From contig CBDCTZ010000016.1 in the NCBI GenBank assembly GCA_965222375.1, positions 32,001 through 96,000 on the forward strand: a DNA stretch of 64,000 nucleotides, read 5' to 3'. Below the pieces are notes generated by a model. That model had not been told where the DNA came from. It ran no database searches and was given only the letters and a program-made list of their open reading frames with translations. The position numbers and the translations under genes were made by a program. Of the stretch, positions 8,101-37,691 are shown one piece after another. Position 1 is the first letter of the stretch; every line of letters starts with the position of its first letter. The stretch is from Polyangiaceae bacterium (GTDB taxonomy: Bacteria; Myxococcota_A; Polyangia; Polyangiales; Polyangiaceae).

Positions 8101-8763
8101 CTAACGCACCGCGTCATTCGCTACCCGGCCCGATTCCAAACGAAGCACGCGAGCCTTCAAGTGAGCCGCCATTCCGGGCGTGTGATTGACCACGACGACC
8201 AACGCGCCTCTCGCAACCTCCGCCTGCAGGATCAGCTCCAAGCGCTCCGCGCTCGCCGGGTCCAACCCGGTGAATGGTTCGTCCAGCAACACGACCGATG
8301 GCTCATGAACCAAAGCGCGCGCCAATGCGATTCGCTGTTTTTGTCCACGAGATAACGAACCGAAGGGCCGACGCCCAAAGGCCTCCGCCCCGACTCGGGC
8401 GCAAACCCGCTCCCAGCTACCGGACACCTCACATCCGTACAGCCTGGCAGCCAGCTCGACGTTCTCTTGTCCGCTCAACTCCCGGTAGCAAAACCCCTCG
8501 TGGGCCACCCATCCGATCTGACCTCGAATTGCGGCCAGATCCTCGCCGAAGGGCGGATAGCTCACGGCGCCACGCGTGGGCTTCAACAACGTCCCGACCA
8601 CTGCCAATAGCGTGCTTTTCCCCGCCCCATTCGGCCCTTCGAGGAACACCAGGGAACCGGCCTCAAACTCTGTCGAAACCCCGCGGAGAGCGGCCGTTCC
8701 CCCGAACATCCGGGTGACACCCGTCACGACCACACGCTCGACACCCGCCACGCTCCGGCCCAT
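8101..8763 (-). CDS. ABC transporter ATP-binding protein, CcmA-like
   Basis: GPNGAGKS, LSRGQKQR, LLDEPFTGLD; short standalone NBD. Confidence 0.85.
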   Translation of the reverse strand: MGRSVAGVERVVVTGVTRMFGGTAALRGVSTEFEAGSLVFLEGPNGAGKSTLLAVVGTLLKPTRGAVSYPPFGEDLAAIRGQIGWVAHEGFCYRELSGQENVELAARLYGCEVSGSWERVCARVGAEAFGRRPFGSLSRGQKQRIALARALVHEPSVVLLDEPFTGLDPASAERLELILQAEVARGALVVVVNHTPGMAAHLKARVLRLESGRVANDAVR

Positions 8764-8827
8764 ACCACACGCTAACCCCCATCCCCGCCTTTTCCCCTTA
8801 CCGATTTGCCCCACACCACGTGCTACG

Positions 8828-9802: not shown

Positions 9803-9807
9803 GCGCC

Positions 9808-10911: not shown

Positions 10912-13061
10912 GGTTCGGGGTCATTCATCGGATCATGACCGACGCCCTGGCGGCGTTGGGCCTGCTTGCACTGATCACGAGTGGCGAGCTGAATCGTTGG
11001 GTCAGCACGGCAATCGTCGTGGGCATGGTGGTAGCGCTGGGCATTCCCGAGCGCTATCAAGACCGCGACTGGATGCGCCGAGTCGGGTTCTCGGCGCCGC
11101 TGGTGCTTCTCGCGCTCCAGACCACGCGCCTGTTCTTGGGTGGGTCCGTGCTGGGGATTGCCGTGGAGTTCGCCGCGGCGCTGCAGGTGGTGCGGCTGGC
11201 AACGCGCAGGGGGGCTGCCCACGACCAACAGGTCATCGTCCTGGCTCTGCTCCATCTGATCGCCGGCACGGTACTGGGAGGCGGCCTGGCCTACGGCCTA
11301 TGCTTCTTAGGATTCCTGGTCGTGGCGCCGGGCGCCTTGGTCCTCAGCCACCTTCGGCGAGAGGTCGAAGGCAACTACCGCCAGGGCGCGCGGGATCGAA
11401 CCGGCTTGCCCGTGGACGTGCCCCGTATCCTCCGCAGTCGGCGGGTGATCGGAAAGAACTTCCTGGTCTTCACCTGCCTGCTGTCCATCCCGATCTTCCT
11501 CTTCACGGCACTGTTGTTTGTGCTCTTCCCCCGGGTCGGGCTGAGCCTTTTGTTGCTCAACCACTCACGCCCCGAGCGCATGATTGGTTTCTCGGACCGC
11601 GTGGACCTGGGCGGCGTCGGCAAGCTCCGCAGCGATCCCACCATCGCCATGCGGGTCGACATTCCCGACCTGCCCGCCGACCCGCCACCGCGCCTAGCTC
11701 TCTATCTCCGGGGCACGGCCTTCGACCAATATGACGGGCGCGCGTGGTCGCGGTCCAAGAAGCTGCGCGTCGCCGCGGACGCCCACGGGCCCAATGTGCG
11801 CATCAAGCGCTTCCCAAACCCAGCGTCGGACCGGAAGATCATCATCGACCTGGAGCCCATCGAGCCCCCGGTCCTGTTCCTGCCACCGGACGCGGTAGCT
11901 CTGCGAGTGATGCCCCGGGGAACGCCCCTGCTGGGCGGCGGCCCCACCGTGTTGAAAGGACCGGAGGACGAGCTCAAGTACTCCAGCCTGGATGATCGCG
12001 GCCTACGCTACGAGGTGTACCTGGCTGGCAAGGACGAGCCCCGGCCCCGCAAGCTCTCGCGGAAGGATCGCGAGCGCTATCTCCGGCTACCCGCCGACGT
12101 GACTCCACGGATCCGGGAGCTGGCCCGCAGCTGGGCCAAGGGCGCCAAGACCGACTTCGCCACCGCCAAGCGCGTAGAGGCGCGCTTGCGTACGGACTAC
12201 AAATACGATCTCGAGTCGCCGTCAGGAGCGTCGTCCAACCCCCTCGACCACTTCCTTTTCGAGAGCAAGAGCGGTCATTGCGAGTTCTACAGCACTGCCA
12301 TGGCCGTGATGCTTCGGGTGGAGGGGATCCCGAGTCGCAACGTAACGGGCTTCATCGGCGGGACCTACAACCGATTCGGCAACTTCTACGCAGTACGTCA
12401 GGGCGACGCCCACTCCTGGGTGGAGGTGTACATCGAGAACAAGGGCTGGACGCGCTTCGACCCGACGCCTCCCTCGGACGCGGCGCCGCGGAGCGAGATC
12501 TCTGGAGTCTTGGCGTTCATTCGGGACCTCGTCGAAGCATCGGCGCAACGCTGGAACCGCCACATCGTCGGCTACGACTTCAAGCAGCAGGTCTCGCTCT
12601 TCCGCAACGTGCGCAACCGCTATTCCACCCTCCGTTCGCGGAGCGAGGTCCTCAGCGCCTTGTCACCTCAGCGGGTTGGGTTCCTCTTTCTCGGCCTCGT
12701 GCTGGTCGCTGGTGGCGTGTACTGGATGCGCCGCGGTCGGAAGAAGGATGACGGCGAGGAAGCCAAGACTGAGCAAAAGGAGCGGGACGCCAGACGCGCG
12801 GTGGAGCTTTACCGCGCGCTCGAGGCCGTCCTGCTACAGATCGGCGTGCCTCGGCCAACCAGCACTCCGCCGTGGGCTCACGCAAGAGCACTTCAGCAGA
12901 TCGGTCACCCCGGTGCCGATACCATCGTCGAGTTGACGAAGCTGTACGTCGCCGCCCGCTTTGGGGGCGAGGCGTTGACCGATGAGCAGCGCAAGAAGTT
13001 TGTGGAAGACACCCGCGAACTCAAGCGGATCCGCAAGCCACCGGAACGAGAAGCCGCTTAG
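10908..13061 (+). CDS. TgpA-like membrane transglutaminase-domain protein
   Basis: Multi-TM N-terminus, YLRGTAFDQYDG, GHCEFYS, DAHSWVEVY, FDPTP triad. Confidence 0.92.
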   Translation: MRFGVIHRIMTDALAALGLLALITSGELNRWVSTAIVVGMVVALGIPERYQDRDWMRRVGFSAPLVLLALQTTRLFLGGSVLGIAVEFAAALQVVRLATRRGAAHDQQVIVLALLHLIAGTVLGGGLAYGLCFLGFLVVAPGALVLSHLRREVEGNYRQGARDRTGLPVDVPRILRSRRVIGKNFLVFTCLLSIPIFLFTALLFVLFPRVGLSLLLLNHSRPERMIGFSDRVDLGGVGKLRSDPTIAMRVDIPDLPADPPPRLALYLRGTAFDQYDGRAWSRSKKLRVAADAHGPNVRIKRFPNPASDRKIIIDLEPIEPPVLFLPPDAVALRVMPRGTPLLGGGPTVLKGPEDELKYSSLDDRGLRYEVYLAGKDEPRPRKLSRKDRERYLRLPADVTPRIRELARSWAKGAKTDFATAKRVEARLRTDYKYDLESPSGASSNPLDHFLFESKSGHCEFYSTAMAVMLRVEGIPSRNVTGFIGGTYNRFGNFYAVRQGDAHSWVEVYIENKGWTRFDPTPPSDAAPRSEISGVLAFIRDLVEASAQRWNRHIVGYDFKQQVSLFRNVRNRYSTLRSRSEVLSALSPQRVGFLFLGLVLVAGGVYWMRRGRKKDDGEEAKTEQKERDARRAVELYRALEAVLLQIGVPRPTSTPPWAHARALQQIGHPGADTIVELTKLYVAARFGGEALTDEQRKKFVEDTRELKRIRKPPEREAA

Positions 13062-13642: not shown

Positions 13643-15034
13643 TCAACGTTTCGACGCGATCGCGGTGGCCCAGGCCAGCGCGCCGGCACAGCGGGCCTCC
13701 GACTTGGGACCCTCGGGGCCACGGCGAAATGGGCCTGCCGTCAGCACCAGATCTCGGCCCTTGCGCACCAGAGCGTAGGGGCCAGCATCGGCTCGCTCCC
13801 GACACAGCTTGTTGTTGCGCAGCGCCTTTTCGGCCTCCGCCCGGGGCACAAATTGCTGCTTGCCCTTCTTCGCGGCCAACACCCCGCGAGCGAAGGCTGT
13901 GCCGGCCCGCTTCGCTCCCGCCAAATCGTCGTAGCGGAGGTGCCAGGCCATGGCGACGTGGCCGCCCTTGCCGTACACGACCACGCGATCCCCGCCCCAG
14001 CCCGCAGCCGAGGCGATGGCGGTCTTCTGAGGCATCCATTCCTCGAAGAGCAACCGCACGGTCTGCTCGCCCATGATGTCGCGGTACAGCACCGCAGTGG
14101 GTCCGCCAGGAAACGCCTCAGGGATCCCAACCGGGTCCCCGGGTTCGTTGGCAGCGTATTTCTCCGGATGCAGAACTTGCTCGGTCGTACTCGGAGGCCG
14201 CGCCCAGATGGCATCGACCGCTGACCAACCTCCGCGACGCCGGGCCCAGTGAATCAGCCCGAGCCCGTCGACGTATGGAGCCACGACGGATCGCTTGACG
14301 AAGGTCGGCACCCCGCTGGTGGACGGCGACATCTCCATGCTGCCCTGAACCTCGAGGGCGATTAGATCATCGCTGATGTCGATGGCCGTCATGCCTCGGG
14401 GAGCCAGCATGTAGTCGAGCATGGCGCTGGTCGCGTCGCCCTCCGCGAGGGCATGAAAAGCGGAGATCTTGTCGCCCTTATCCTCGGCGAACTTGACCTT
14501 GGAGCCCAGGTCCCAGTGCTGATCCTGCAGCGCGTGCACGAGCTCGTGGGCGAGGGTGGCCTCACGCTCGGCGCCAACCAGGTCCTCGAGCAAGTACATG
14601 GTCTTGTCCCGCGGCTCGTAGAAGCCAGCCAGCTGGGACTTCAGTAGCGACAGCAGCGCCTTTTCGAAATCGAAATCCGCCGGGGCAACGCCGAGGCCGA
14701 ACAGCAATTCGTTCTGCGCCACCACCACGCGCTTGGGAATTTCCCGGTGGATCTGAGCCTTCACGTGCTTGAGCATTTTCGCGCGCGAGATCGTCTTACC
14801 CCGCACCGCTCCTTTGGCGGGGAGCTGACGGCGGCGGGAGACGTGCGCCAAGGCCGCCTTCACGACCGAGTCGGCGGTGAGGGAGTTGTCTTGCTTGTTG
14901 GGCGCTTCGGGCAATGCAGCCGGAGCAGCGGACGCAGGCGGCGCGACGTCCGGCGACGTCGGCGCGGGAGGTGGCGCCGAGGTGCAGCTGGCAGCGAATA
15001 GCCACAGCGCAAAGGCACAGGCCCGAGACTTCAC
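13643..15034 (-). CDS. Lipoprotein with HExxH zinc-metallopeptidase-like motif
   Basis: FAASC lipobox; [35 protein letters not shown]. Confidence 0.8.
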
Positions 15035-20446: not shown

Positions 20447-22123
20447 ATGCTGAGCCAACCCGACGAATTAATCGGAACACTTGTTGCGGAGCGCTACCGG
20501 ATCAAAGAGCGGCTGGGGCGAGGCGGCATGGGAACGGTGTTCCTGGCTGAACACGAGGCCATTCACAAGAAGGTCGCCCTCAAGGTTCTGCATCCGGAGT
20601 ACTCCGCCAAGCCCGATCTGGTAGAGCGCTTCCAACGCGAAGCCATCAGCGCTTCGCGGGTCAAGCACATCAACGTTCTCGAGGTCTTCGATTTCGGCGA
20701 GCTGCCCAACGGCTGCTTCTACCTGGCCATGGAGTTCTTGGAGGGCCATGACCTGGCCGACGAGTTGGAGCGCCGCAAGGCCCTTCCGGCGGACCGGGTT
20801 CTTATCATCGCGAAACAAATCTGTCGCGCCCTGGCAGCAGCGCATAGCCGTGGCGTGGTGCATCGTGACCTCAAACCCGAGAACGTTTTCCTTTCGCGCA
20901 CGGCGGACGGCGAAGAGGTCGTCAAGATCGTCGACTTCGGGATCGCCCAACTCCGCGCCCCGGACGAGGCCGCCAAGTCCGAGCCCACTCGACGCAGACT
21001 AACCCGCACCGGGATGATCTTCGGAACGCCGGAGTATATGTCACCGGAGCAGGCCCAGGGCGCGCGCTCGGATCACCGCGTGGACGTGTACGCGACAGGC
21101 GTCATCTTGTTCGAAATGCTGACTGGAGCCGTGCCCTTCACGGCCGAGACGTTCTTAGGCGTGTTGCAGGCGCACCTGAACAAACCGCTGCTGCCGATGA
21201 AGCACTTCTACCCAGAGGTGCAGGTGTCCGAGGAGTTGGAAGCGGTCATTGCTCACGCCCTGGAAAAGGACGCTGACAAGCGCTTCGCGCGCATGAATGA
21301 CCTCGCCGCGGCCCTCGTAGACACGGCGGAAGGGCGCAACCTGCGGGCCTCCGTGTTGCCACCCGCGGGGCCAGCCCTGGATCGGGTTTCCAGCGTACCC
21401 ACGGCATCCCATCCGGGGCAGCCCACCAGCGTCCAATTCGACGACACCAATCCAGAAGCTGAGGCCGAACCCGCAACCCGAGCAAACGCCGACACGGTGG
21501 CGGAAGCGGCACTGCCGCTGACCCACGCCAAAGAAAAGCCCGCGGCCGCCGTGACCGCCCTGGGCAGCACCACACCCAGCCCGACGGACGACCCTGCACC
21601 GCCACCGCGGCGCTCGGTAGGCATCTGGTTGGCGCGTGGTGGTTTCGTCGTTGCGTGCTTGGCGGCCCTCGGATGGTACGTGCGCAGCACTTCGCTGCGG
21701 GCCCCGCCGAAGCCGCCGGTGGATCCCGAAGACAAATCTGTGACAACAGCCACGGCACCCCAGGTGCCATCCAGCCCACCATCTGTCGAACCCACCACCT
21801 CCGCGGCACCGGCGATCCCACACGGCAAGGTAAGCCTGACTGTCGAGAGCAACCCAAAGGGTGCGACGCTCTTCATGAACGGCGCCCAAGTCTGCGACAG
21901 CACGCCCTGCAAGGTGCTCGTGAAGCGCGACGAAGTGGTGGAGCTGATGGCGGAGCACGGGGGCCGCAAGGCAAAGCGAAAGGTCATGGCTCAGAAGGAC
22001 CAGACCGTGAAGCTCGAGCTGAAGAAAAAGGTCATTCGGGGCCCAGCCCCCAAGAAGATGTGCACGGCCGAGGTGATGCGGGACGGAATCAAGGTCTTCG
22101 TCGACGTGCCCTGCAAACCTTGA
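20447..22123 (+). CDS. Membrane Ser/Thr protein kinase with C-terminal PEGA domain
   Basis: LGRGGMGTV, VALK, HRDLKPEN, DFG, GTPEYMSPEQ; TM; LTVESNPKGATLF..TPC. Confidence 0.95.
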   Translation: MLSQPDELIGTLVAERYRIKERLGRGGMGTVFLAEHEAIHKKVALKVLHPEYSAKPDLVERFQREAISASRVKHINVLEVFDFGELPNGCFYLAMEFLEGHDLADELERRKALPADRVLIIAKQICRALAAAHSRGVVHRDLKPENVFLSRTADGEEVVKIVDFGIAQLRAPDEAAKSEPTRRRLTRTGMIFGTPEYMSPEQAQGARSDHRVDVYATGVILFEMLTGAVPFTAETFLGVLQAHLNKPLLPMKHFYPEVQVSEELEAVIAHALEKDADKRFARMNDLAAALVDTAEGRNLRASVLPPAGPALDRVSSVPTASHPGQPTSVQFDDTNPEAEAEPATRANADTVAEAALPLTHAKEKPAAAVTALGSTTPSPTDDPAPPPRRSVGIWLARGGFVVACLAALGWYVRSTSLRAPPKPPVDPEDKSVTTATAPQVPSSPPSVEPTTSAAPAIPHGKVSLTVESNPKGATLFMNGAQVCDSTPCKVLVKRDEVVELMAEHGGRKAKRKVMAQKDQTVKLELKKKVIRGPAPKKMCTAEVMRDGIKVFVDVPCKP

Positions 22124-22207: not shown

Positions 22208-22236
22208 TTCGACCATTTACCGGCCCCGGTTCGTTT
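22208..22236 (+). promoter_or_regulatory. Putative ECF promoter upstream of the sigma gene
   Basis: TTCGACCA-N13-GTTCGTTT, recurring at 23632-23660. Confidence 0.65.
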
Positions 22237-22275
22237 CGAAGGGGGCGGGTGCCTCTTTCCGGCCAACCGCTGTTC

Positions 22276-22851
22276 ATGACACTCTCGATTTCAATGCCCG
22301 TGAAACCCAGCGACCACGACTGGCTCGCCGAGTTTCATGAGGGAAGTCGACAGGTACTGGGGGAGTTCTACCGCGAGCACTTTCGAACCGTCGACCAAGC
22401 GGTGGGCCGACACCTGACCGGTCCGGACCGGGAAACGGTCGTTCACGAGGTTTTTTGTCGCCTGATCTCGATGCCCGAGCTCCGCCGGGCGTTTCGGGGA
22501 GGATCTGCGGCGGCGTGGATCGCAACAGTCGCCAAGAACCAAGCCATCGACTTTCGTCGCCGGCAGCGCCGAGAAGTCGTCAGCGACGAACCCGAGCGCA
22601 TTGTCGAAACCACCGGTGCCGAGTTCGCCGAACCCGAAATCGTTGATGCCGAAGCCCGGTTGTTGATGGAGCGTTTTTGCCGCGATGTGCTGCCCGACAA
22701 GTGGCGCCCCGTTTTCCAAACCTGCTTTGTTGAAGGCATGACGCAGCGAAGTGCAGCGACAAAGCTGGGACTCTCGCGCACGACGCTGCTGTATCAGCAG
22801 CATCGCGTGCGTGCCCTGCTCAGGAAGTTCTTGCTGGAGACCGACTCATGA
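22276..22851 (+). CDS. ECF RNA polymerase sigma factor
   Basis: ETVVHEVFCRL, AWIATVAKNQAIDFRR (region 2); EGMTQRSAATKLGLSRTT (region 4). Confidence 0.9.
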   Translation: MTLSISMPVKPSDHDWLAEFHEGSRQVLGEFYREHFRTVDQAVGRHLTGPDRETVVHEVFCRLISMPELRRAFRGGSAAAWIATVAKNQAIDFRRRQRREVVSDEPERIVETTGAEFAEPEIVDAEARLLMERFCRDVLPDKWRPVFQTCFVEGMTQRSAATKLGLSRTTLLYQQHRVRALLRKFLLETDS

Positions 22852-23606
22852 CGGACAGCGCCACCGACTGCTCGATGCAGGAGTTCGTCGACCGCCACTT
22901 CGCGGGTAAATTGCCGCCGATGGAGGAGCGAAGGCTGCGCACGCATTTGCCAGGATGCGTGCTGTGTGATCGCCGCTACCGGCGCCAGCTCTTGTGGGCG
23001 AGATTCGACAGACGAGCGCTTTCGCGACAAGAGCGGCTGGCCCGCGGTCTCGGCCTCGCCGGAAAGATCACGGGCGCCCGCTGGTCGTCACCTCGCGTAT
23101 TGGCACCCGCCTTGGCCGTCATCGGCGCACTGTTGTTGGTCATGGCCTTGCCGAATCTCGGCTCCCCGGCGTTTCAGGCTCGCGGAACCTCAGGGCCTGC
23201 CGCCACTGAAGTCTGGGCTTACCGCATCACGGCCGAAGGCTCCGCGCCGCTCGGTGATTCGATGGGCCAATACGACGAGTTGGCCTTCGCGTACTTCGTC
23301 CCAGCCGAGGCCGAGGCTACCAAGTACTTGTTGGTTTTCGCGGTCGACGAGCACCGGCGCGTCTACTGGTACCACCCGGCTTGGACCGATCCCGACGGCT
23401 CTCCACAGGCGATCCCAGTAGCGGCGGGGCGCCACGAGCTCCCTGAGGCGGTCGCCCACCAGTTCCGTGGCCGGGATCTGACGCTCTACGCGGTGTTTGT
23501 GGCTTCCCCGGTGAGCGTGTGGGAGGTCGAAAAGGCAATAAGTTCCGGGAGTGCCGAGTTCACCGGACAAGTGCAGTGGCAACGACGGGTGCGGGTCAAT
23601 CGGTGA
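22848..23606 (+). CDS. Zinc-binding (HxxxCxxC) transmembrane anti-sigma factor
   Basis: HLPGCVLC, single TM, extracytoplasmic beta domain; ATGA overlap with sigma. Confidence 0.85.
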   Translation: MTDSATDCSMQEFVDRHFAGKLPPMEERRLRTHLPGCVLCDRRYRRQLLWARFDRRALSRQERLARGLGLAGKITGARWSSPRVLAPALAVIGALLLVMALPNLGSPAFQARGTSGPAATEVWAYRITAEGSAPLGDSMGQYDELAFAYFVPAEAEATKYLLVFAVDEHRRVYWYHPAWTDPDGSPQAIPVAAGRHELPEAVAHQFRGRDLTLYAVFVASPVSVWEVEKAISSGSAEFTGQVQWQRRVRVNR

Positions 23607-23631
23607 AAGCGAGATTCGTCACGAGATCGGG

Positions 23632-23660
23632 TTCGACCAAAAGCCCCCGGTCGTTCGTTT
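23632..23660 (+). promoter_or_regulatory. Second copy of putative ECF promoter
   Basis: TTCGACCA-N13-GTTCGTTT. Confidence 0.65.
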
Positions 23661-23727
23661 GCATTCTCGGTCCCTAGCGACATCCTTCCCGCGCGCCGAT
23701 CGTCGGCGATGGGCCCCCAAGGCAAAG

Positions 23728-26118
23728 ATGAAGACTTCTATCTCGCTGACTTTATTAAACTTTTCCGCGGTCCTCACCGGATGCTTCGGTGAATCCGAGC
23801 TGGCTGGCCTGCCGTGCCCGTGCGCCGACGGCTGGACCTGTTGCGAAACCCAGGGCGTCTGTGTTCGCGACCCAGCTCAGTGCCCGGCGGGCGACCCAGA
23901 CGCCGGCACCCCGACAACAAGCGTGACGGTTGAGCCGACGTCGGCACGCCTACGGCTGGGTGGCACCCAATCCTTCACCGCCAACGTGGCGGTTACCTGG
24001 AGCGTCGAGGAGCCAAACGGCGGCGCGATTGACAGCAGTGGGCGTTATCGCGCGCCGCTAGTGCCCGGCGTCTACCACGTACGTGCGACCCCAGCGGAGG
24101 GGGAGGCCCAACTCGTTCTGGTTACCGTCGGACCACAAGACCTCGTCGTCGCGGCGGGGCAGCCTGGGGGTGCGGGACACGCCGACGGGTTCGGCGGTGA
24201 TGTCCGCTTTCGAGCCCCGAAGAGTCTCGTTGGAGATGACAAGTTCCTGTACGTGAACGACACCTACTCGCTCAGACGCATCGAGCTCGAAACGGGCGAA
24301 GTCTCTACGCTGGTCCGCGACCTCAAGGCTGGACATATCGCCGTGAGCGGTGGGCACCTTTACGTGTCGAACGTTGCCGGAACCTTGGTCAAGCGTGTCG
24401 ATAACGCCGCTGGCACGGTGGCTGATTTTGCCGGCGATGAAAAGTTCATCAATCCTTGGGATGACTGGAAGGACGGCATCGGCAGCGGGGCGGGCTTCTT
24501 CACCGTCAGCGGGATGGTCGGCAACGCCGACTACATCTACGTCAGCGATGCCAGCCTGCTGCGGCGCATCGACACACAGACCGGCGCCGTCGAAACCCTC
24601 GCCGTGAGTGAGTTTTGGAAAGACCACGGCCCGGTTGCTGTCAATTTCCCAGGCGCAAAAACCGGCCCCTGGAAGAACCTTGGACCGATCGCGATGCGCG
24701 ACGGACAGGTCTACGCCGTCGAAACCTACGCCGTGGGTACGGGCACGCCCAGTATCTGGAAGATCGATCCAGCAGCCGTGTCTTTCGAACAAGCGCTATC
24801 GTCCACCGTTCCTTTCGGACCCAACACAACACCGCTGCCCGCCGGCGGCGGCACCTTCGCTAGCCTGGCCTTCGACGAGCAGGGCACACCGCTCGTGGTC
24901 GATGGCCACGCCTTGGTGCGCCCCGTCATTGTCAACGGTAAGGTCGTGGTCTACCCGACGGTGGGCAAGGTTGATGAATACGGTGATGCCGACGGCCTTG
25001 GCTCCGTCGCGCGGCTTTCGACGCCGCAAGGCATCTGGAGTCCCGTTGGCGTTGGGCCAAGGGACTTGTTCGTCGCCGACACCACGAACAACAAGGTGCG
25101 TCGAGTGCAGATGACGGAGGCTGGGCCGCTTGGCAAGCAAGCATGGGTGGCGTCTACACTGGCTGGCGAATCCGACCACCGCGGTTCCGTCGACGGGGTC
25201 GGCAGCAAGGCACGTCTGGTGTCCCCGCATCGTCTGACCGTTGACGACAGCGGCGTGACCTTCGTCGCCGAGTTGTCATCGAACCAGTCGGCCTACGTGG
25301 ACCAGATCCGACGAATCGATCCCAGCGGCGCTGTCAGCGTGTTGACCGCGTTACCAAGCGAATTCTCTTATGTTCTAGGGATGGCTGCAGCCGGGGGTGC
25401 ACTGTTCGCTACGGCTACCTCTGGGAAGGCGCCGTACGACTTGTTGCGCTACGACTTGAGCGGCAGCAAGTGGACCACTCTCAACTGCGGCGCTCCAGGG
25501 ACTCGCCACTACACGGGCCTCGTCTACGACGGTGAGAACTACCTTTATGCAGTGGACTCGGTTCTGGGCACCGTTGAACAGATCGAGCTCACCGTCGCGT
25601 TGACCGCGTGCACTAACGGAAAGCAGGCAGCCACTAGCACCACGGTGCTGTCGGGTCTGACGCCGGCTACGTCGCTGGCCAAGACGTCGGCAGCAATCTT
25701 CAAAGCGTTTCGCGAACTGGCCGTGGACGCAGATCGCGGCGTGCTGTTCGTCAGCGACGACGACACCCTGAAAAGACTCGACCTAGGCAGTGGCCAGCTC
25801 GAAACGCTACCCGCGCCGCCGAACGGTTGGGGGCCCATCGAAGGACTGGCCTTCGACCCAGCTGGCGTGCTGTACGTGTTGCGAGCAGGTGACTGGCAAA
25901 AGCCAATCGGAGTCGAGCAGGGCGGTTCCCATCAGATCGTGGCGTTGGTCGTGGAAACGGGACAGACCTATGAAGTCGTGGGAGCGCCGGACCACGAAGG
26001 GGTGAAGCTCGGAGCACTGCCCGGCGGGGTGAACAATCCATCCGCCATCGCTCTGGGTCCGGGTGGCGAGCTCGTGATCGCCGATGAAGACGAGCACGTG
26101 GTGCTGACTGCAAGATGA
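23728..26118 (+). CDS. Lipoprotein with Cys module, Ig-like domain and NHL beta-propeller repeats
   Basis: VLTGC lipobox; PCPCADGWTCC; VTWSVEEPNGGAIDSSGRYRAP; repeated DGxGxxARL/F..P..LFVADTTNNKVRR. Confidence 0.85.
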   Translation: MKTSISLTLLNFSAVLTGCFGESELAGLPCPCADGWTCCETQGVCVRDPAQCPAGDPDAGTPTTSVTVEPTSARLRLGGTQSFTANVAVTWSVEEPNGGAIDSSGRYRAPLVPGVYHVRATPAEGEAQLVLVTVGPQDLVVAAGQPGGAGHADGFGGDVRFRAPKSLVGDDKFLYVNDTYSLRRIELETGEVSTLVRDLKAGHIAVSGGHLYVSNVAGTLVKRVDNAAGTVADFAGDEKFINPWDDWKDGIGSGAGFFTVSGMVGNADYIYVSDASLLRRIDTQTGAVETLAVSEFWKDHGPVAVNFPGAKTGPWKNLGPIAMRDGQVYAVETYAVGTGTPSIWKIDPAAVSFEQALSSTVPFGPNTTPLPAGGGTFASLAFDEQGTPLVVDGHALVRPVIVNGKVVVYPTVGKVDEYGDADGLGSVARLSTPQGIWSPVGVGPRDLFVADTTNNKVRRVQMTEAGPLGKQAWVASTLAGESDHRGSVDGVGSKARLVSPHRLTVDDSGVTFVAELSSNQSAYVDQIRRIDPSGAVSVLTALPSEFSYVLGMAAAGGALFATATSGKAPYDLLRYDLSGSKWTTLNCGAPGTRHYTGLVYDGENYLYAVDSVLGTVEQIELTVALTACTNGKQAATSTTVLSGLTPATSLAKTSAAIFKAFRELAVDADRGVLFVSDDDTLKRLDLGSGQLETLPAPPNGWGPIEGLAFDPAGVLYVLRAGDWQKPIGVEQGGSHQIVALVVETGQTYEVVGAPDHEGVKLGALPGGVNNPSAIALGPGGELVIADEDEHVVLTAR

Positions 26119-27662
26119 GACATTGGCTCGCTTTCTTGGGCTTTGCGGCGACGCTGTGCTTGACGACCACGGCAAGCGCCACCCGACCGACTGCGACCTT
26201 TGCGTTGATCATCGGCGTCAATCAAGCTGCCGACCGCGAGCTACCCAAACTTCGCTACGCCGATGACGATGCCGCCCGCTACCAGGATCTGTTCCGAGTC
26301 TTGGGGATGCGAACGCATCTCTTAGCGCGCATCGACAAGAACACGCGGCGCGTTCATGCCCAGGCGGCGGCGGAGGCCTCGCTGCCGACGCGTCGGAGCT
26401 TGGAGCGGGCGGTTTCTCGCCTAGCTGCGGAGATCCGTCGTGCCAAACGACGCAAGATTCGCACGCTCTTCTACTTGGTGTACGCGGGCCACGGGAACGT
26501 CAAGCGCGGCGAAGCGTACCTGCTTTTGGAAGACCACCGCCTAACCGGCAAGCGAATCGCCAAGTTGGTGACGCGACTCGGTGCAGACCAGTCTCACCTG
26601 ATCGTGGACGCCTGCCACTCGGGGCTGCTCGTCATGAGTCGCGGACCGGGTGGCACGCGCCGCAGGCTGGAAGGGTTCAGTCGCATCGGCGCGGCCCTGT
26701 CGGATCGGCGGATCGGACTGTTGCTGTCGTCATCCTCTGGACGTGAGAGTCACGAGTGGGAGAACTTCCAGGCGGGCGTGTTCAGTCACGAGGTCCGGTC
26801 CGGCCTCTACGGCGCTGCCGACGCGGATGGCGACGGACGCATCAGCTATCGGGAAATTGCTGCATTCATCGAACGTGCCAATGCCGCGATTCCCAATGAA
26901 CGCTATCGACCCGATGTTTACGCCAGGCCACCGGCCGATTCGGGCATGCTCGCTGATGTGCGTCGGGCGCTCGCACGTCGCGTCGAAGTCAAGACCAAGA
27001 CAGGCGCGCACTACGCTCTCGAAAACGGCCTCGGCGTTCGCTTGGCCGACCTGCACCCGGGCACCGGGCACAAGATGAACATTATTCGACCCGGCGTCGG
27101 CAAGCTCTACCTACGCCAGATCAAAGGCCGCGAGGAGTACGGATTGCCCGGAAACCAAGCCGTGATCCGGCTCGCCGATCTCCAACCCGAACAACCACGC
27201 GTGGCCATGCGCGGCGCGGCCCACGAGGCTTTTGGCCGGGTGTTTGCGCTGCCGTTCGATGAAGAGGCGGTGCGGCGCTTCCGTTTTCGGCCCCTCATTC
27301 CACGGAGCACGCCAATCGACACGCCTCCCCCATCGCAGACCACCTGGCGACACCCAGCGGGGATTGTTGCGCTTGGAGTTGGGGCGGCCGCGGCGACCAC
27401 GGGTCTGGCGTTCACGCTATCCGCCGAACGGCTCCACGCCGACGGCAGCTCCGGCGGCTCCCAAGCAGAGGTCGCCGCCCGCAACGATCGCGTCGCGGGC
27501 CGACAACTCGCCGCAGCAGTGTCCTTCGGTGTCGCTGGCGCCGCCGCCGCGGCCGGACTCACCTTGCTCTTGTGGCCGGACGAAAGCGGCGCCGGTCTCA
27601 GCGCGACGGCCTCCCCGAGCAGCGTGAGCATTGGGTTCGGCTCACGCTGGGATCCTTTCTGA
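26115..27662 (+). CDS. Exported caspase-family (C14) protein with C-terminal membrane hairpin
   Basis: Signal peptide; FALIIGVN, LRYADDDA, YAGHG, DACHSG dyad; DADGDGRISYRE EF-hand-like loop. Confidence 0.9.
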   Translation: MRHWLAFLGFAATLCLTTTASATRPTATFALIIGVNQAADRELPKLRYADDDAARYQDLFRVLGMRTHLLARIDKNTRRVHAQAAAEASLPTRRSLERAVSRLAAEIRRAKRRKIRTLFYLVYAGHGNVKRGEAYLLLEDHRLTGKRIAKLVTRLGADQSHLIVDACHSGLLVMSRGPGGTRRRLEGFSRIGAALSDRRIGLLLSSSSGRESHEWENFQAGVFSHEVRSGLYGAADADGDGRISYREIAAFIERANAAIPNERYRPDVYARPPADSGMLADVRRALARRVEVKTKTGAHYALENGLGVRLADLHPGTGHKMNIIRPGVGKLYLRQIKGREEYGLPGNQAVIRLADLQPEQPRVAMRGAAHEAFGRVFALPFDEEAVRRFRFRPLIPRSTPIDTPPPSQTTWRHPAGIVALGVGAAAATTGLAFTLSAERLHADGSSGGSQAEVAARNDRVAGRQLAAAVSFGVAGAAAAAGLTLLLWPDESGAGLSATASPSSVSIGFGSRWDPF

Positions 27663-27703: not shown

Positions 27704-28160
27704 TCACGTCTGCAGGTTCGGCGATGGCCGCGGCGTTGGCGTTCGGCGCTGGCTTGTTGCACGCTCAGCAATGATCGCGTGAGCGCGAGCGGCACTGAGC
27801 TTCAGGTCGAATTCACGAGACCCCTGGCGGTCAGTGCGCACCGAAATTCTCACGCGGGCGGTAGCGTACAGCGCCATGAACTCGGCGACCCTTTGCAATT
27901 GCTGGCGGTTAGCGCGAAAGAGCTCTGATGAGTCGGGTCGGAAGGTGAATTCTCCATCAGACCCGTCGTACCACCAGTCCAGCTTGAGCTCGGCACGTAC
28001 CGGCGACGGACCGGCCACCGGCTCTTCCGGTTTGGAAAGGCTCGCTTTGCCAGGTCATCGAAGCGTGCGGCGACGTCGAAGGGGGAGCCGACGCCGCGCA
28101 TGCCAACAAGGCAACGAATGCCGCGGTGACGACGGACAAGTCGGCGCACTGATCACTCAA
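27704..28160 (-). pseudogene. Frameshifted, truncated OmpA-like lipoprotein
   Basis: Lipobox in 27957..28160; FRPDSSEL..TDRQGSREFDLKLSAARA in another frame (27704..28018). Confidence 0.65.
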
Positions 28161-28162
28161 CT

Positions 28163-28801
28163 CTACTCATGACACTCCACGACGCTGGTGCTGACGGAGA
28201 GACACTTCGGATAGTAGCTCTGACAAAACTGGCCAAAGCAGCTGCAGCTAAGGCCCGAACAAGTCACGACGCCCTTCGCGAGACAGCGGTATTCGTGAAC
28301 CGTTTGCCCCGGTAGAGATTCGTAATGCACGCAATAAGTAGTCGACGGACAAGCCGCACAACCGCTTACTGACTTGCAAGAAGCGAAAGAAACGCAAGGG
28401 CCGAAGCAACCCGCACCATCGTGGGTCGGGACGTGTCCCTTGGCGCAAATGGGCATTGCTTTCTTGCACTGAACTTTGTCCAAGTCGCAGTCGGCGCCAC
28501 CACCAGCGCCGCCTGTGCCTCCTGTGACCACACCAGCGCTCCCGCCAGTACCCGCGGCTCCACCCGCTGCACTTCCTGCGATGCCACCGGCCCCGCTCGC
28601 AGCCGTTCCTCCGCTTCCACCAGTTCCGACCCCGGCTGAAGCGGAGGTACCACCGGAAGCAGACATCCCACCAGTGGCTGCAGCTCCGCCCCCTCCGCTG
28701 GCCTTCCCACCTCCCCCGCCCGCTTGATCCGAGTCTGTCTCACCGCAAGCGAGAGCGAAAACACCGCTCAACAGAATTCCATGCAACAATCGTCGTCTCA
28801 T
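28163..28801 (-). CDS. Gly-rich / Cys-rich lipoprotein
   Basis: FALAC lipobox, Gly linker, Cys-rich domain. Confidence 0.8.
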   Translation of the reverse strand: MRRRLLHGILLSGVFALACGETDSDQAGGGGGKASGGGGAAATGGMSASGGTSASAGVGTGGSGGTAASGAGGIAGSAAGGAAGTGGSAGVVTGGTGGAGGGADCDLDKVQCKKAMPICAKGHVPTHDGAGCFGPCVSFASCKSVSGCAACPSTTYCVHYESLPGQTVHEYRCLAKGVVTCSGLSCSCFGQFCQSYYPKCLSVSTSVVECHE

Positions 28802-28859
28802 CTGATGCGTGACCCGTGATTAGCACCGCCATCACAGCCGAGCAAACCATCTCATAAGG

Positions 28860-29350
28860 TGCAAAGACGGGTCGGCAGAGCGTGCTGGCACTCCCGCCGG
28901 ACTTGGAGATCTTGAGCAGCGCTTTATCTCCGTCCAGAACGTAGACGTGGGTGGCGTCGACGGCGAGTCCCCGCGCCTTGTGCAGACCGGTCCCCAACTT
29001 CACTGATGAGCCCCCCGCCTTCGGGATCTTCCCCACACCTCTTTTCCGGAGCCGTAGAATACGTGCGTGGCATCAAGGGCGATTGCATCGGAGCCGGCGC
29101 CGTTTGGCACCAGCACTTCCGGTTTGCATTCCGCGGTGCAACCGACGCTGCCGGCTGAGCCGCCGCTCGCGGTTCCGGCGGAGCCAACACTCGCGGCTCC
29201 AGCGGAGCCACCGCTTGCCGACCCGGCAGAGCCCCCCGAGGAACCACTGACTCCCCCTGTGGCGCCGCCGCTGCCTGCGATCTGTTCCCCGCCGCTGCCC
29301 GCGGCTCCGCCTCCGCCGACCAAGCCGACGCACTCGCCACCGCATTGGGG
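28860..29350 (-). pseudogene. Fragment of Gly-rich protein with beta-propeller repeats
   Basis: IALDATHVFY and GLAVDATHVYV repeats split across two frames; no clear start. Confidence 0.6.
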
Positions 29351-29392: not shown

Positions 29393-30781
29393 TCAACCGG
29401 AGCGCTTCCGCACGCCCTTCACGCTCGCCGACACCTGCTCGATCGTGCCGCGCAGCGCGCTACCACCCGGGATCAGCCCGACCGCCGCCTTCAACGCACC
29501 CTGGGTGTCGCCCTGAGCCAGCGCGCTGATGCCCTCGACCGAGGCTTTGACCAGGTTGAAGCCAGGCAGGCTGCCAAACAGATCGAAGCCCGCGTCCTCT
29601 GCTTCGGCGACCGCGGCTTCCGTCGCGGCGCCAGCACTCGGCATCGGCTTACCGCTCTCACCGAGCTTCTTGAGCTTCTTGCACGTAGGCCCGCTGACCA
29701 GGCTGCCCGGAGCGATGCTCTCGCCTCGGTAGCACTTGGCGCGGTCCGCCTCGTACTTCTGATTGGTCTCGTTGGCCATCTGAGTGACCGACTTCTGGCT
29801 ACCGGCCGTCTCGGCTTGGCGGAACACGGCGTCGATGCCGTCCTTGTACTGGGCCTCGTAGCGCTGATCGCCGTGGATCTTGCGCATCATGCCTTCGTAC
29901 TGCGCTTTGACCTGGCCGACCGTTCCGCTCAGGTTCTTCACATAGCTCTTGGCCTCGTCCAAGCTGACCTCGGGCTCCTTGGGGAACGACTCGAGGGCCT
30001 TGGTAGATAGCGCCTCGAGCACCGCCGGATTGCCGCCGGCGTTGAGCACGGCCTGATAGGAGGTCAAAAGCCCGAACGAGAGCGCGGCGACGTGTTCCAC
30101 GCGGCGTTGCAGCTTGAGCCAACGCTGCACGCGCTTGTAGTCCGCCTCGTTGAACTCCATCTCCTGCTGCTTGCGCGTTCGCACCATGCCAGCCACGCGC
30201 AAAACCGTGGTCAGGGCGTTGGTCTGCAGCATGTCGTTGGACTGCATGGTGACCATCGAGAGATTCATGACCTGCATGCGCAAGTCCGTGAGCTTCTGGA
30301 CGTGCTTGCTCGCCGCCCGAAACTCCTTCAGCTCCCGCTGGCTCATCTTCTTGCCCGCGGGCCGCGCCTTCATCTTGTCGGTGAAGGAGTCCTTGAGCTG
30401 CAGGAAGTTACCGGCCACCTGCTTGCCGTGTTGATCCTCGACTGGCACGAGGCTCAGCTTGATCTTGGCGCCTCGCAGATCCTTAATCGCGGTGGCCGAG
30501 GGCGTGGGCATCGGCCCACCCGGACTGATCGCCTCCTTGCCAAGCGCCTGCTTCAGCGCTTTTTCCAGCTTCTCTTCGTGGCCGGTCACCTGTTGGCCAA
30601 GCACGTTGTTCTTGGCTTCCATTTGGTCGGCCAAGGCCTCCTGGTCACGAACGGCGTCCTTCTGCTCCTGGCTGACCAGTGGACCTTGCTGGGCACCGGC
30701 GTTTTGCTGGGGTGGCATCAGGCAAGCGCCGAGAGAAGCGGACAAAAGCAATGCTACGGGAAGGTGATAACGAAACTTCAT
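29393..30781 (-). CDS. Helical lipoprotein of unknown function
   Basis: SLGAC lipobox, 462 aa, strong GC3 codon bias. Confidence 0.85.
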   Translation of the reverse strand: MKFRYHLPVALLLSASLGACLMPPQQNAGAQQGPLVSQEQKDAVRDQEALADQMEAKNNVLGQQVTGHEEKLEKALKQALGKEAISPGGPMPTPSATAIKDLRGAKIKLSLVPVEDQHGKQVAGNFLQLKDSFTDKMKARPAGKKMSQRELKEFRAASKHVQKLTDLRMQVMNLSMVTMQSNDMLQTNALTTVLRVAGMVRTRKQQEMEFNEADYKRVQRWLKLQRRVEHVAALSFGLLTSYQAVLNAGGNPAVLEALSTKALESFPKEPEVSLDEAKSYVKNLSGTVGQVKAQYEGMMRKIHGDQRYEAQYKDGIDAVFRQAETAGSQKSVTQMANETNQKYEADRAKCYRGESIAPGSLVSGPTCKKLKKLGESGKPMPSAGAATEAAVAEAEDAGFDLFGSLPGFNLVKASVEGISALAQGDTQGALKAAVGLIPGGSALRGTIEQVSASVKGVRKRSG

Positions 30782-35720: not shown

Positions 35721-37691
35721 ATGCGCGAAAACTGGAAAAGCCGATGGGGACTGATTCTGGCGGCGGCAGGCAACGCCGTCGGCATCGGCAACCTGTTGCG
35801 CTTTCCCGGCCAAGCCGCGCAGAACGGCGGGGGCGCCTTCATGGTGCCCTACCTCATTTCGCTGCTGATCTTCGGCCTGCCGATGATGTGGATCGCTTGG
35901 ACCCTCGGCCGCTTCGGCTCACGGCATGGTCACGGCACGCTGCCGGGCATCTTCGACAAGCTGAGCTCCTGGCGCGGCGCCAAGTACCTGGGCGCTTTGG
36001 GCGTGGCCGGCCCGCTGATCTTCTGCTTCTACTACACGTACCTCGAAGCCTGGTGTTTCGCTTACGCCTGGTTTTCGTTCCGCGGGCTGTACGAGTCGGC
36101 TCACCTGCCGACCTTCTTGAGTGAGTTCCAGGGCGTGCTGCCTACAGGCAGCTACTTCTCGTCGACGAACACGGCCTTGGCCTTCCTGGTGGTCACCATC
36201 GGGTTGAACGTGTGGGTGCTGTATCGAGGCGTCGCTCGAGGCATCGAGCTGCTGGCCAAGATCGCGATGCCGCTGCTGCTCGCGTTCTGCGTGTTGATGT
36301 GTTGGCGCATCTTCACGCTGCCCGACGCCAAGGGGAGCGTGATCGATGGCTTGGCTTTCATGTGGAATCCGAATTTCTCGGCGTTGGGCAGCCCCAGCGT
36401 GTGGTTGGCGGCCGCGGGGCAGGTCTTTTTCACCCTGAGCATCGGCTTCGGCGCGTTGGAAACCTACGCCAGCTACCTGCGTCACAACGACGACGTCGCG
36501 GTCACCGGGTTGACCACGGCCGGCGCGAACGAGTTCGTCGAGATCATCTTCGGCAGCATGATCGCCATCCCCGCCGCAGCGGTGTTTTTCGGCGCTGCCG
36601 CCATTCCCGAGATCGCGTCCAGCGGGACCTTCGACATCGGCATGGTCAGCATGCCCGAGATCCTACGAGCCACCCAGTCCACCCAGATCTTCGGGACGAT
36701 CTGGTTCCTGCTGCTGTTCTTCGCTGCCTTCACTTCCTCGGTCGCGGTCTGCCAACCCGTGATGGCATTCTTGCAAGATGAAGCTGGCCTGCGCCGAGGT
36801 TCAGCGGCCGCGGTGATCGGCTTGTTCTGGCTGCTGGGCAGCATCCCGGTCGTGTTCTTCCTGCGCTACGGGTTCCTGGACGAGTTGGATTTCTGGGCGG
36901 GAACCCTCGGCCTCGTGCTGGTGAGCGCGATCGAAGTCGTGTTCTTCTCTTGGGTCTTCGGCATCGACCGCGGTTGGAAGGAGCTACACCGTGGCGCGCT
37001 GATGAAGGTGCCGCGCATCTTCCGCTTCACGATGCAGTATGTGACTCCCGTGGCCCTGGCGCTGATCCTCGGCGGCTGGGTGTATGGCGACGTGATCGTC
37101 GGCGGAAAACTGAATCCAAGGCCTGGCATGGTCACGGGCATCGTCGACCGCGGCGCTTTCGAGGGCGATTTCGTCAAGAAGCCGCCGAAGGGCGAGGGTG
37201 CCGACGCCAAGGAGCACGGTCTGTTGAAGCAGAGCCTGCTCGGCGCCGTCGAAGTGGCAGGCCGGGATCTGAAGGGTTGGGCGTACCTGGAGATCGACGC
37301 GGGCGGCGGGGTCGTCGTCTCTCGCTTCGAGGGAGACCCAACGCTGACGTCGGCGTTTCCAAAGAAGACCCTGCAGCGAATGCTGGAGCTGGAGGGGTAC
37401 CACTACGCTGTCGACGGGACGAAGACCGCGACTCAGGCCACGTTGCTGATCGAAGGCCTCAATCGGAAGCCGTATATTTGGTTGGCCCGAGGCCTGATGC
37501 TCGGCCTAATCGCGATGATCTGCGTGATGATTGGAGTCATCTGGAAGCACCGCCGCGAGCGCGAAGAAGAGGAAGAAGTGAGTGAGGCAGCCGGGGCCAC
37601 TACTGCAACAGCAGAGGGCGACTCGGAGGAAGCCGACGAGGCGGAGGCCGCCGCTCCAAAGACGAAAGTGACCGAGGAGGAGGAATCATGA
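35721..37691 (+). CDS. Sodium-dependent transporter, NSS/SNF family
   Basis: AGNAVGIGNLLRFP, NGGGAFMVPY, AAGQVFFTLSIGFG, YASY. Confidence 0.95.
   Translation: MRENWKSRWGLILAAAGNAVGIGNLLRFPGQAAQNGGGAFMVPYLISLLIFGLPMMWIAWTLGRFGSRHGHGTLPGIFDKLSSWRGAKYLGALGVAGPLIFCFYYTYLEAWCFAYAWFSFRGLYESAHLPTFLSEFQGVLPTGSYFSSTNTALAFLVVTIGLNVWVLYRGVARGIELLAKIAMPLLLAFCVLMCWRIFTLPDAKGSVIDGLAFMWNPNFSALGSPSVWLAAAGQVFFTLSIGFGALETYASYLRHNDDVAVTGLTTAGANEFVEIIFGSMIAIPAAAVFFGAAAIPEIASSGTFDIGMVSMPEILRATQSTQIFGTIWFLLLFFAAFTSSVAVCQPVMAFLQDEAGLRRGSAAAVIGLFWLLGSIPVVFFLRYGFLDELDFWAGTLGLVLVSAIEVVFFSWVFGIDRGWKELHRGALMKVPRIFRFTMQYVTPVALALILGGWVYGDVIVGGKLNPRPGMVTGIVDRGAFEGDFVKKPPKGEGADAKEHGLLKQSLLGAVEVAGRDLKGWAYLEIDAGGGVVVSRFEGDPTLTSAFPKKTLQRMLELEGYHYAVDGTKTATQATLLIEGLNRKPYIWLARGLMLGLIAMICVMIGVIWKHRREREEEEEVSEAAGATTATAEGDSEEADEAEAAAPKTKVTEEEES

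Follow-up and report, generated by a model that had tools for sequence, protein, structure and literature searches.

A 64,000-nucleotide (nt) stretch of the genome of a Polyangiaceae bacterium (GCA_965222375.1, contig CBDCTZ010000016.1, positions 32,001–96,000 of the forward strand), called the window here and numbered from its first letter, carries a module of four genes. Their predicted products are a sigma factor of the extracytoplasmic function (ECF) type, a zinc-type single-pass anti-sigma factor, a lipoprotein with a cysteine motif and a variable remainder, and an exported, membrane-anchored C14 (caspase-fold) protease. Our subject is how these four products might work together, and in particular whether the protease would cut the anti-sigma factor on the outer side of the membrane and so free the sigma factor. 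The module contains the following features, with subsites of the candidate cleavage site called positions throughout so that they are not confused with the promoter-like motifs P1 and P2.

22208..22235, plus strand: promoter-like motif P1 of ECF type, a pattern match to TTCGACCA-N16-CGTT, ahead of the sigma gene
22276..22851, plus strand: ECF sigma factor gene (longest open reading frame, ORF, 22249..22851)
22848..23606, plus strand: anti-sigma factor gene (ORF)
22944..22967, plus strand: zinc-binding motif H33-x3-C37-x2-C40 of the anti-sigma factor
23172..23186, plus strand: FQARG, residues 109–113 of the anti-sigma factor, with the candidate site-1 cut R112/G113 (alignment and model)
23632..23659, plus strand: promoter-like motif P2, the second copy of TTCGACCA-N16-CGTT, 69 nt ahead of the lipoprotein start
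23728..26118, plus strand: lipoprotein gene (longest ORF 23551..26118)
23815..23844, plus strand: CPCADGWTCC, the constant motif of the lipoprotein family (CPCxxG[WYF]xCC), a few residues past the lipobox Cys
26115..27662, plus strand: C14 protein gene (ORF)
26490..26492, plus strand: predicted catalytic His126 (in G125-H126-G127)
26613..26615, plus strand: predicted catalytic Cys167 (in D165-A166-C167)
26634..26663, plus strand: MSRGPGGTRR loop of the C14 protein, a candidate autoprocessing linker
26820..26855, plus strand: EF-hand-like loop D236–E247 of the C14 protein, DADGDGRISYRE
27204..27215, plus strand: AMRG, residues 364–367 of the C14 protein, between beta-sandwich and anchor
27354..27578, plus strand: two Gly/Ala-rich hydrophobic helices, residues 414–488 of the C14 protein, predicted membrane anchor

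An initial annotation of this DNA had described four co-oriented genes with ATGA overlaps, and direct reading of the sequence agrees with it: all four ORFs lie on the plus strand, with overlaps at 22848–22851 between the sigma and anti-sigma genes and at 26115–26118 between the lipoprotein and C14 genes. The motifs that it had listed (FQARG, MSRG, AMRG, the His/Cys dyad and the EF-hand-like loop) were each found in place. The longest ORF of the sigma gene opens with a GTG at 22249; since P1 ends at 22235, the ATG at 22276 or the one at 22294 is a likelier start. Likewise, the ATG at 23728, which opens a reading frame with a lipoprotein-like N-terminus (MKTSISL...LTGC), is the likelier start of the lipoprotein.

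The sigma factor scores above the cut-offs of TIGR02937, the model of the ECF superfamily (E 2e-14, 53.6 bits against a cut-off of 42.9), and of Sigma70_r2 (2.3e-7, 31 bits against 24), and its match to Sigma70_r4 lies under the cut-off (4e-4, 20.3 bits against 24.1). With regions sigma-2 and sigma-4 only, and about 200 residues, it has the composition that defines the ECF (group IV) sigma factors. The anti-sigma factor is a protein of 252 residues, for which an AlphaFold2 model (mean predicted local distance difference test score, pLDDT, of 86) places helices 11–74 in the cytoplasm, a membrane helix at about 84–102, a linker, and an immunoglobulin (Ig)-like periplasmic domain at 121–251; hydropathy finds a single hydrophobic segment, at 79–109. 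The window's protein has no Pfam match of its own at E < 0.01. Among its relatives the zinc motif is well kept (H33 in 73/74, C37 and C40 each in 72/74), and at E ≤ 0.1 zf-HC2 is found in 60 of the 72 family members, with the window's own protein at E 0.032. The N-terminal H-x3-C-x2-C motif and a gene that overlaps the sigma stop codon are those of class I zinc-binding anti-sigma (ZAS) factors, and by analogy with that class the protein is predicted to sequester its partner sigma factor.

The C14 protein begins with a signal-peptide-like segment at residues 4–23, with a family consensus of A-R-A ahead of the mature part. The model (pLDDT 83) continues with a catalytic domain at 26–260, a beta-sandwich at 268–352, a linker, two hydrophobic helices and a C-terminal beta-hairpin. 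A Foldseek search with this model returned MALT1 as the top match (6f7i, E 6.2e-7), along with Yca1, a Candida glabrata metacaspase and GSU0716. VIA-align ranked AtMC4 first (6w8r, Z 17.9, root-mean-square deviation 3.7, 218 residues aligned), but legumains and caspases are tied with the metacaspases inside 1 Z unit, so that these scores favour no one subfamily of clan CD. The fold, a His followed by a Cys at strand ends and the Gly beside the His are those of clan CD, family C14. Sequence models were less telling: the window's protein has no match to PF00656 at E < 0.01, although many homologues carry it, and its best NCBIfam match, caspase_w_EACC1, is weak (34.4 bits against a cut-off of 140). 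A sequence search of the PDB with the caspase profile found EF-hand proteins only and no structure with a caspase fold. These matches (such as 1jfj, E 2.1e-5) fall on the loop D236–E247, the one part of the protein with sequence matches among solved structures. The loop is canonical and is kept in caspase paralogues of 26–33% identity, which makes it a feature of the clade. Calcium dependence of the protease is plausible. Invariance was counted over 36 aligned C14 sequences, and G125, His126 and G127 as well as D165, A166 and Cys167 are invariant.

Hydropathy puts the two hydrophobic stretches near the C-terminus at 414–437 and 464–488, and the model has helices at 409–442 and 450–486 followed by a short beta-hairpin, with an aromatic last residue in most sequences. 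We read this anchor as a hairpin in the inner membrane that would leave the catalytic domain in the periplasm. The signal peptide, the C-terminal hydrophobic helices and an anti-sigma linker predicted to be periplasmic thus fit the earlier suggestion that the protease faces the same compartment as the outer domain of the anti-sigma factor. The same anchor module (27354–27662 in the window, consisting of the hydrophobic Gly/Ala-rich helix pair, then a polar loop and then the short beta-hairpin, whose last residue is mostly aromatic) has no match to a Pfam family, and it recurs on exported TPR and TPR-PEGA proteins in this genome and in many relatives (for example L115 705–1475 and L116 405–1364).

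At least 1,496 proteins of equal length, roughly 45–75% identical to it, are related to the C14 protein, all from Myxococcota wherever a source is named. To these we can add the neighbourhood of the gene in 80 related loci from species-representative genomes, in which the neighbours were found by tblastn. The sigma gene is present in 75 and the anti-sigma gene in 77 of the 80, always on the same strand and directly upstream, and the three genes are adjacent in 75 of the 76 Myxococcota loci with enough upstream DNA. Five loci are short of one or both genes. Four of them are cut by a contig end (L031, L035, L048, L077), and the sole real exception, L080, has 8 kb of upstream DNA in which a direct profile search also found nothing. 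Most loci have the caspase gene embedded in the sigma/anti-sigma operon, and the intervals between the genes run from about -3 to 250 nt. An even sample of 201 genomes of the phylum gave a similar picture, with at least 34 of 53 anti-sigma-profile matches directly upstream of a caspase match, a lower bound counted by hand from two tables that list 150 of the 243 caspase matches. Among the matches listed, 26 of the 38 strongest caspase matches (E ≤ 1e-62) have an upstream anti-sigma neighbour, and the other 12 have an anti-sigma-like ORF directly upstream (10) or a sigma match upstream (2). Linkage to a sigma/anti-sigma pair, holding in the 80 loci and again in the 201-genome sample, is thus close to obligatory for this caspase family, and it reaches paralogous pairs in which the catalytic domain alone is recognisable.

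The second line of evidence is the linker of the anti-sigma factor, where the initial annotation had pointed to an Arg-Gly motif just outside the membrane. We aligned 72 anti-sigma sequences, leaving out two rows with an in-frame stop or a frameshift. The columns of this alignment have a mean identity of 26%, and R112 is one of only 10 that are invariant. Position P1 is R in 72/72 and position P1' is G in 70/72; position P4 is mostly F (53, with 6 L, 3 V and 3 I), and position P2 is A (46), P (14) or S (10). The resulting consensus, [F/L/V/I]-x-[A/P/S]-R-G, stands between variable, low-complexity flanks on either side. In the model, the site lies about 10 residues outside the membrane helix (88–99 as bounded here), in DSSP coil before the first strand at 121, and residues 103–110 have pLDDT below 50. 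More divergent anti-sigma factors, whose partner caspases share 30–37% identity, have R-G in five of six printed alignments and R-S in one. For ten still more distant pairs we read the printed sequences by eye, with no aligner: positions P1-P1' are R-G in 2, K-G in 5, and K-A, K-D and M-G in 1 each, from the motifs F-Q-A-R-G (1), F-A-P-R-G (1), [F/V/W]-R-x-K-G (5), I-R-V-K-A (1), I-R-T-K-D (1) and I-R-W-M-G (1). By this visual reading, the proposed position P1 is basic in 9 of the 10. The conserved site therefore held up in the alignment, and divergent paralogues mostly keep a basic residue there.

Does the protease look suited to such a site? Three regions set the specificity of clan CD enzymes at position P1, namely helix alpha-1, the loop leading up to the catalytic Cys, and loop L5; the S1 residues are Asp365/Asp462/Glu500 in MALT1, Asp95/Asp211 in TbMCA2 and Arg/Gln/Arg in caspases (PMC4357240). 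Invariant acidic residues of the C14 family occur in D50–D52, which open helix 49–62, at D165, two residues ahead of C167, and at E211 and E214 (followed by W215) just past strand 200–207; secondary-structure position, not residue-level superposition, places them at the three S1 regions. An S1 pocket so modelled fits a basic residue at position P1. MALT1 prefers Leu-Val-Ser-Arg, that is, a hydrophobic P4 (Phe is accepted), a small P2 and an Arg at P1, which it requires (PMC3304489), and the anti-sigma consensus follows the same pattern.

The C14 protein has Arg-Gly motifs of its own. MSRG (residues 174–177) belongs to the loop right behind the catalytic Cys, the place where caspases get processed. 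R176 is invariant in 36/36, as are P178, G179, G180 and R182; residues 174–178 have pLDDT below 50, and paralogues keep R or K. The second motif, AMRG, lies in a block (361–370) with a mean pLDDT of 57, and R366, G367 and A368 are invariant in 36/36.

Two copies of one bipartite promoter-like motif, of the general form TTCG[T/A]CCA-N16-CGTT, precede the sigma and the lipoprotein genes of the window. The pattern TCGTC-N17-19-CGT[TC] occurs ahead of the sigma gene in 50 of the 73 sequences examined; the window itself counts as a miss under this pattern because TTCGACCA has an A for the T, a variant that P1 and P2 share. Across this genome (10.56 Mb), TTCGWCCA-N15-18-CGTT gave 25 matches, P1 and P2 included, against 15 for the reversed control, and most of the genomic matches besides P1 and P2 are probably due to chance. 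A related pattern searched over 1.04 Mb of loci gave 81 matches, of which 42 lie on the plus strand 1,500–2,000 nt before the caspase start, that is, ahead of the sigma gene, and 17 lie 1,250–1,750 nt past the caspase start, just ahead of the lipoprotein gene. Four loci with the lipoprotein gene ahead of the sigma gene also have the motif there. In its strict form the motif stands ahead of 19 of the 50 lipoprotein genes of the family in related loci (75 strict matches in 2.08 Mb, both strands counted). From this placement, it is very probable that the sigma factor drives transcription of its own operon as well as of the lipoprotein gene, the second unit including the caspase gene in this window.

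The lipoprotein has a lipobox (LTGC, Cys19) and a beta-propeller region of the NHL/DUF6923 kind (DUF6923 1.3e-8, 35.4 bits against a cut-off of 27; TEN_NHL 1.1e-5; NHL 2e-4, 21.7 bits against 20), as is characteristic of NHL lipoproteins. Its relatives are recognised by the cysteine motif. Of the 73 loci that extend for 300 nt or more past the caspase gene, 41 have CPC-x2-4-[WYF]-x-CC starting no more than 500 nt downstream of that gene, the usual site of the lipoprotein gene. The gene stands upstream of sigma in L030, L032, L036, L053 and L072, and overlaps the end of the caspase gene in L090. We extracted 50 such genes from related loci, encoding 140–1,296 residues, and scanned 42 proteins (41 of these and the window's own) for domains. 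The C-terminal parts vary, with NHL, FG-GAP and fn3, Big_6/Big_13, VWA, Laminin_G_3, RCC1 or nothing recognisable; judged by its sequences, the family is one of a constant adaptor with a variable head. The initial annotation had seen the NHL propeller as the sensor or the output of the system. With a sigma-type promoter copy of its own, the lipoprotein is, on motif placement, at least an output of the sigma factor, but the propeller itself is not conserved and the cysteine motif alone is. Two further observations concern this family. A basic residue stands two positions ahead of the first CPC Cys in 43 of the 50 lipoproteins (R 34, K 5, H 4), with Leu in the window, and locus L040 has two tandem CPC-motif NHL lipoprotein genes (7277–9475 and 9577–11829) behind its caspase gene, each preceded by a copy of the promoter motif.

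These observations suggest the following mechanism. On a signal, the C14 protease would cut the anti-sigma factor after Arg112 in the juxtamembrane linker (site-1), a site-2 metalloprotease would take away the remaining stub, and the freed sigma factor would use P1 to transcribe its own operon and P2 to transcribe the lipoprotein gene, here together with the caspase gene. The genome also has genes for Peptidase_M50 proteins (best E 2.5e-65), candidates for the second step, and the lipoprotein could be both receiver of the signal and induced product. The synteny and the conserved Arg-Gly site of the anti-sigma factor both held up, and for this reason an Arg-directed site-1 protease is the best supported reading. 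The earlier idea of a site-1 protease triggered by Ca2+ or a ligand is partly supported; the EF-hand, however, is no evidence of a specific trigger. Overall, we regard it as an even question whether the C14 protease makes the site-1 cut. An extended version of the mechanism, in which myxobacteria would have families of modular pathways for extracytoplasmic recognition, and polymorphic lipoprotein receptors, with a constant Cys-knot N-terminus and exchangeable propeller, Ig, lectin or VWA heads, would switch on a calcium-gated, paracaspase-like protease that frees the ECF sigma factor by a cut at an invariant basic-Gly site, with paralogues insulated from each other by R-G and R-x-K-G variants, is offered tentatively, and we consider it rather doubtful as a whole.

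Several points weigh against the site-1 cut. The block 111–120 of the anti-sigma model has a mean pLDDT of 72 and may be partly ordered, in the distant K-G subfamily the motif stands just 3–4 residues ahead of the first strand, and an invariant Arg beside a folded domain could be structural instead. On the side of the protease, the S1 assignment of the acidic residues is positional, and the anchor may lie in the outer membrane, in which case the active site would be further from the juxtamembrane site. The gene order of the window is a minority form: a gene between the anti-sigma and caspase genes is found, apart from the window, only in L016 and L045, 2 of the 80 loci. Genomes of the same genus lack a close homologue. 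Together with third-position GC content of 0.70–0.77 in the four module genes against 0.81–0.84 in flanking genes (12003–13061, 13643–14914, 29393–30781 and 35721–37691), this suggests that the module was acquired or has been patchily lost. Finally, synteny and a shared promoter would suit equally well a protease that is a co-regulated output.

The last point leads to the alternative that survives best: instead of activating the sigma factor, the protease would be one of its outputs, co-transcribed with it or induced by it, and would process other envelope proteins, perhaps releasing or maturing the cysteine-motif lipoprotein, and the anti-sigma factor would be inactivated by a different protease or a signal. 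The lipoprotein gene, here with the caspase gene, indeed stands behind a sigma-type promoter copy, it is what usually lies downstream of the caspase gene (41/73 loci), and its product mostly offers a basic residue ahead of the cysteine motif (43/50). Moreover, in the public gene call P0121 the caspase and lipoprotein ORFs are joined. That residue, however, is followed by Pro, Ala or Ser and then Cys, and is Leu in the window's own lipoprotein. The caspase gene lies mostly inside the sigma/anti-sigma operon, the usual place of co-regulators, and a role as output would leave the invariant basic-Gly motif of the anti-sigma linker, maintained across paralogous subfamilies, unexplained. We consider this alternative unlikely. 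As for P0121, it is the best of four longer fused caspase forms that we inspected as possible fusions to an anti-sigma factor; none of the four has an anti-sigma part, and P0121 joins the caspase ORF to the lipoprotein ORF that follows it.

Alternatively, protease and anti-sigma factor might interact without any cut, either with the Ig-like domain holding or inhibiting the protease or with the protease domain serving as an RseB-like co-sensor. The Arg-Gly site would act in docking or as a pseudo-substrate, and the signal would pass by release and not by cleavage. The protease does carry an invariant V-A-x-R-G-A-A of its own (R366/G367, 36/36), a possible pseudo-substrate, and the anti-sigma domain has weak matches to inhibitors of Ig-like fold (3isy, E 0.043; alpha-2-macroglobulin domain 2p9r, E 0.052). 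Yet its fold matches are generic Ig-like ones and none reaches E ≤ 0.001, and the invariance of the catalytic His, the Cys and the Gly beside the His in 36/36 argues for catalysis. We hold an interaction of this kind to be quite improbable. Least of all do we expect a defence or cell-death device with the protease as effector and the sigma pair setting its dosage, like the defence island controlled by DdvS/DdvA: conflict systems often contain caspase-fold proteases, the best (sub-cut-off) NCBIfam match is of the EACC1-associated type, the partner lipoprotein is polymorphic, the distribution is patchy and third-position GC is below that of the flanking genes, but PADLOC models match none of the four proteins at E ≤ 0.01, the variable heads are binding modules (NHL, FG-GAP, fn3, Big, VWA, lectin, RCC1) and not toxins or nucleases, and no CRISPR, CBASS or NTPase gene adjoins among the ORFs of the window.

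Foldseek with the anti-sigma model gave generic Ig-like matches only (best E 7.1e-3). DUF4384 matches 3 of 72 anti-sigma family members (best E 0.014), a weak lead that we do not claim. A common origin of the beta domains of the anti-sigma factor and the caspase was not detected, as hhalign of the two profiles gave only a 17-column match of hydrophobic helices at a probability of 0.6%. In two loci (L065 3412–4179 and L088 7066–7923) the anti-sigma gene is broken and the caspase gene intact. One of the breaks is a frameshift, the other a stop codon in frame within the zinc motif, and either faulty sequence of the metagenome bins or genuine decay could account for them.

In regulated intramembrane proteolysis of the RseA/DegS/RseP kind, the site-2 protease is kept from acting by the periplasmic domain of a single-pass anti-sigma factor until the site-1 cut has taken place (summarised in PMC11506125). 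The module shares with this pathway the single-pass anti-sigma factor with its periplasmic domain and the presence of M50 genes in the genome; its candidate site-1 protease differs, being a Cys protease of clan CD with a predicted Arg at position P1 rather than a PDZ serine protease. In surface signalling of the Fec type (FecA/FecR/FecI), one outer-membrane protein senses the signal and is itself targeted by the sigma factor that it activates. The module possibly shares this logic, and no TonB-dependent receptor or FecR domain was found by Pfam in the module genes.

A closer relative in kind is DdvS/DdvA of Myxococcus xanthus, described in 2024, in which a periplasmic CHAT domain is fused to the anti-sigma factor and proposed to be its own site-1 protease (PMC11506125). 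This system has, like our module, an ECF sigma factor, a zinc-type single-pass anti-sigma factor and a periplasmic caspase-fold protease with His and Cys, from the same phylum, together with a juxtamembrane site-1 cut in the linker followed by RseP, a cut that is a proposal only for DdvA as well. In DdvA, however, a TPR-CHAT part of about 900 residues is fused to the anti-sigma factor and proposed to act on the partner protomer, whereas the module has a 130-residue Ig-like anti-sigma domain and a separate C14 protein with signal peptide, anchor and EF-hand and no TPR, as well as a lipoprotein partner that is polymorphic and an Arg-Gly site that is defined and invariant. Pfam found neither CHAT nor TPR domains in the module proteins, and lacking a fused TPR-CHAT domain, the module is not of DdvA type; by analogy, it may work like DdvA nonetheless.

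Among caspase-fold proteases at large, MALT1 and the metacaspases resemble the C14 protein in their fold and, judged by secondary-structure position, in their acidic S1 residues, and MALT1, in which an Ig-like domain follows the caspase domain, controls transcription factors by cleavage (PMC3304489; PMC4357240). The C14 protein differs from them in that it shares 15–20% identity, is exported and membrane-anchored, and has an EF-hand loop embedded in the fold, and unlike MALT1 it has no N-terminal death or Ig domains. Craspase, the type III-E CRISPR pair Cas7-11/Csx29, likewise sets a caspase-fold protease on a sigma/anti-sigma-like pair, but is cytoplasmic, RNA-guided and of TPR-CHAT type (PMC10028731); the module has neither a CRISPR context nor a PADLOC match.

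Operons that combine sigma factors with metacaspases have been known since Asplund-Samuelsson et al. (2012), who found four of the five metacaspases of M. xanthus DK 1622 in predicted sigma-factor operons and reported sigma-70/metacaspase operons also from Anaeromyxobacter, Haliangium, Sorangium, Ralstonia and Fibrobacter (PMC3501461). The available part of that survey contains no anti-sigma factor, cleavage motif, promoter, lipoprotein partner or mechanism, and the words 'caspase' and 'C14' are absent from the text of an ECF classification paper and from the accessible part of its supplement (PMC7826278). In the literature that we searched, we found no published mechanism, cleavage site, promoter or lipoprotein partner for such operons. 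Already known are the operons themselves (2012) and the fused DdvA anti-sigma factor (2024).

Bacterial caspase homologues are abundant, and a substrate or role is known for almost none. If the proposed cut is made, it would add an Arg-directed step by a Cys protease at site-1 to the ways in which ECF sigma factors are released, back the proposal for the fused DdvA anti-sigma factor and account for the sigma/metacaspase operons noted since 2012, and the lipoproteins with their constant motif and variable heads would indicate what these pathways sense. Should the more doubtful receptor mechanism also prove true, the module would be a bacterial counterpart of proteolytic signalling of the MALT1 type, with the first defined physiological substrate of a bacterial metacaspase homologue. 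The module lends itself to a specific and cheap test, with one protease, one five-residue site and one reporter promoter.

Lastly, we examined the genes around the module. A Ser/Thr protein kinase with a C-terminal PEGA domain (20447–22123, plus strand) lies 125 nt upstream and is co-oriented with it. Kinase matches occur in only 9 of the 80 related loci and in inconsistent places, and the kinase is for this reason probably not part of the module. The ORFs downstream of the C14 gene are present in 0, 0 and 1 of the 80 loci and were likewise set aside. A predicted lipoprotein of 212 residues (28163–28801, minus strand) combines a long stretch rich in Gly, Ala and Ser with a Cys-rich C-terminal part; Pfam gives no match for it, and none of the 80 loci has a relative. 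On the same strand, a 104-residue ORF (27704–28018) contains only a partial OmpA domain, and two overlapping short ORFs (28740–29340), each with a 'DATHV[YF]' motif, resemble frame-shifted pieces of one gene. The OmpA fragment and the overlapping short ORFs lend some support to the earlier remark that the module sits in a decayed island.

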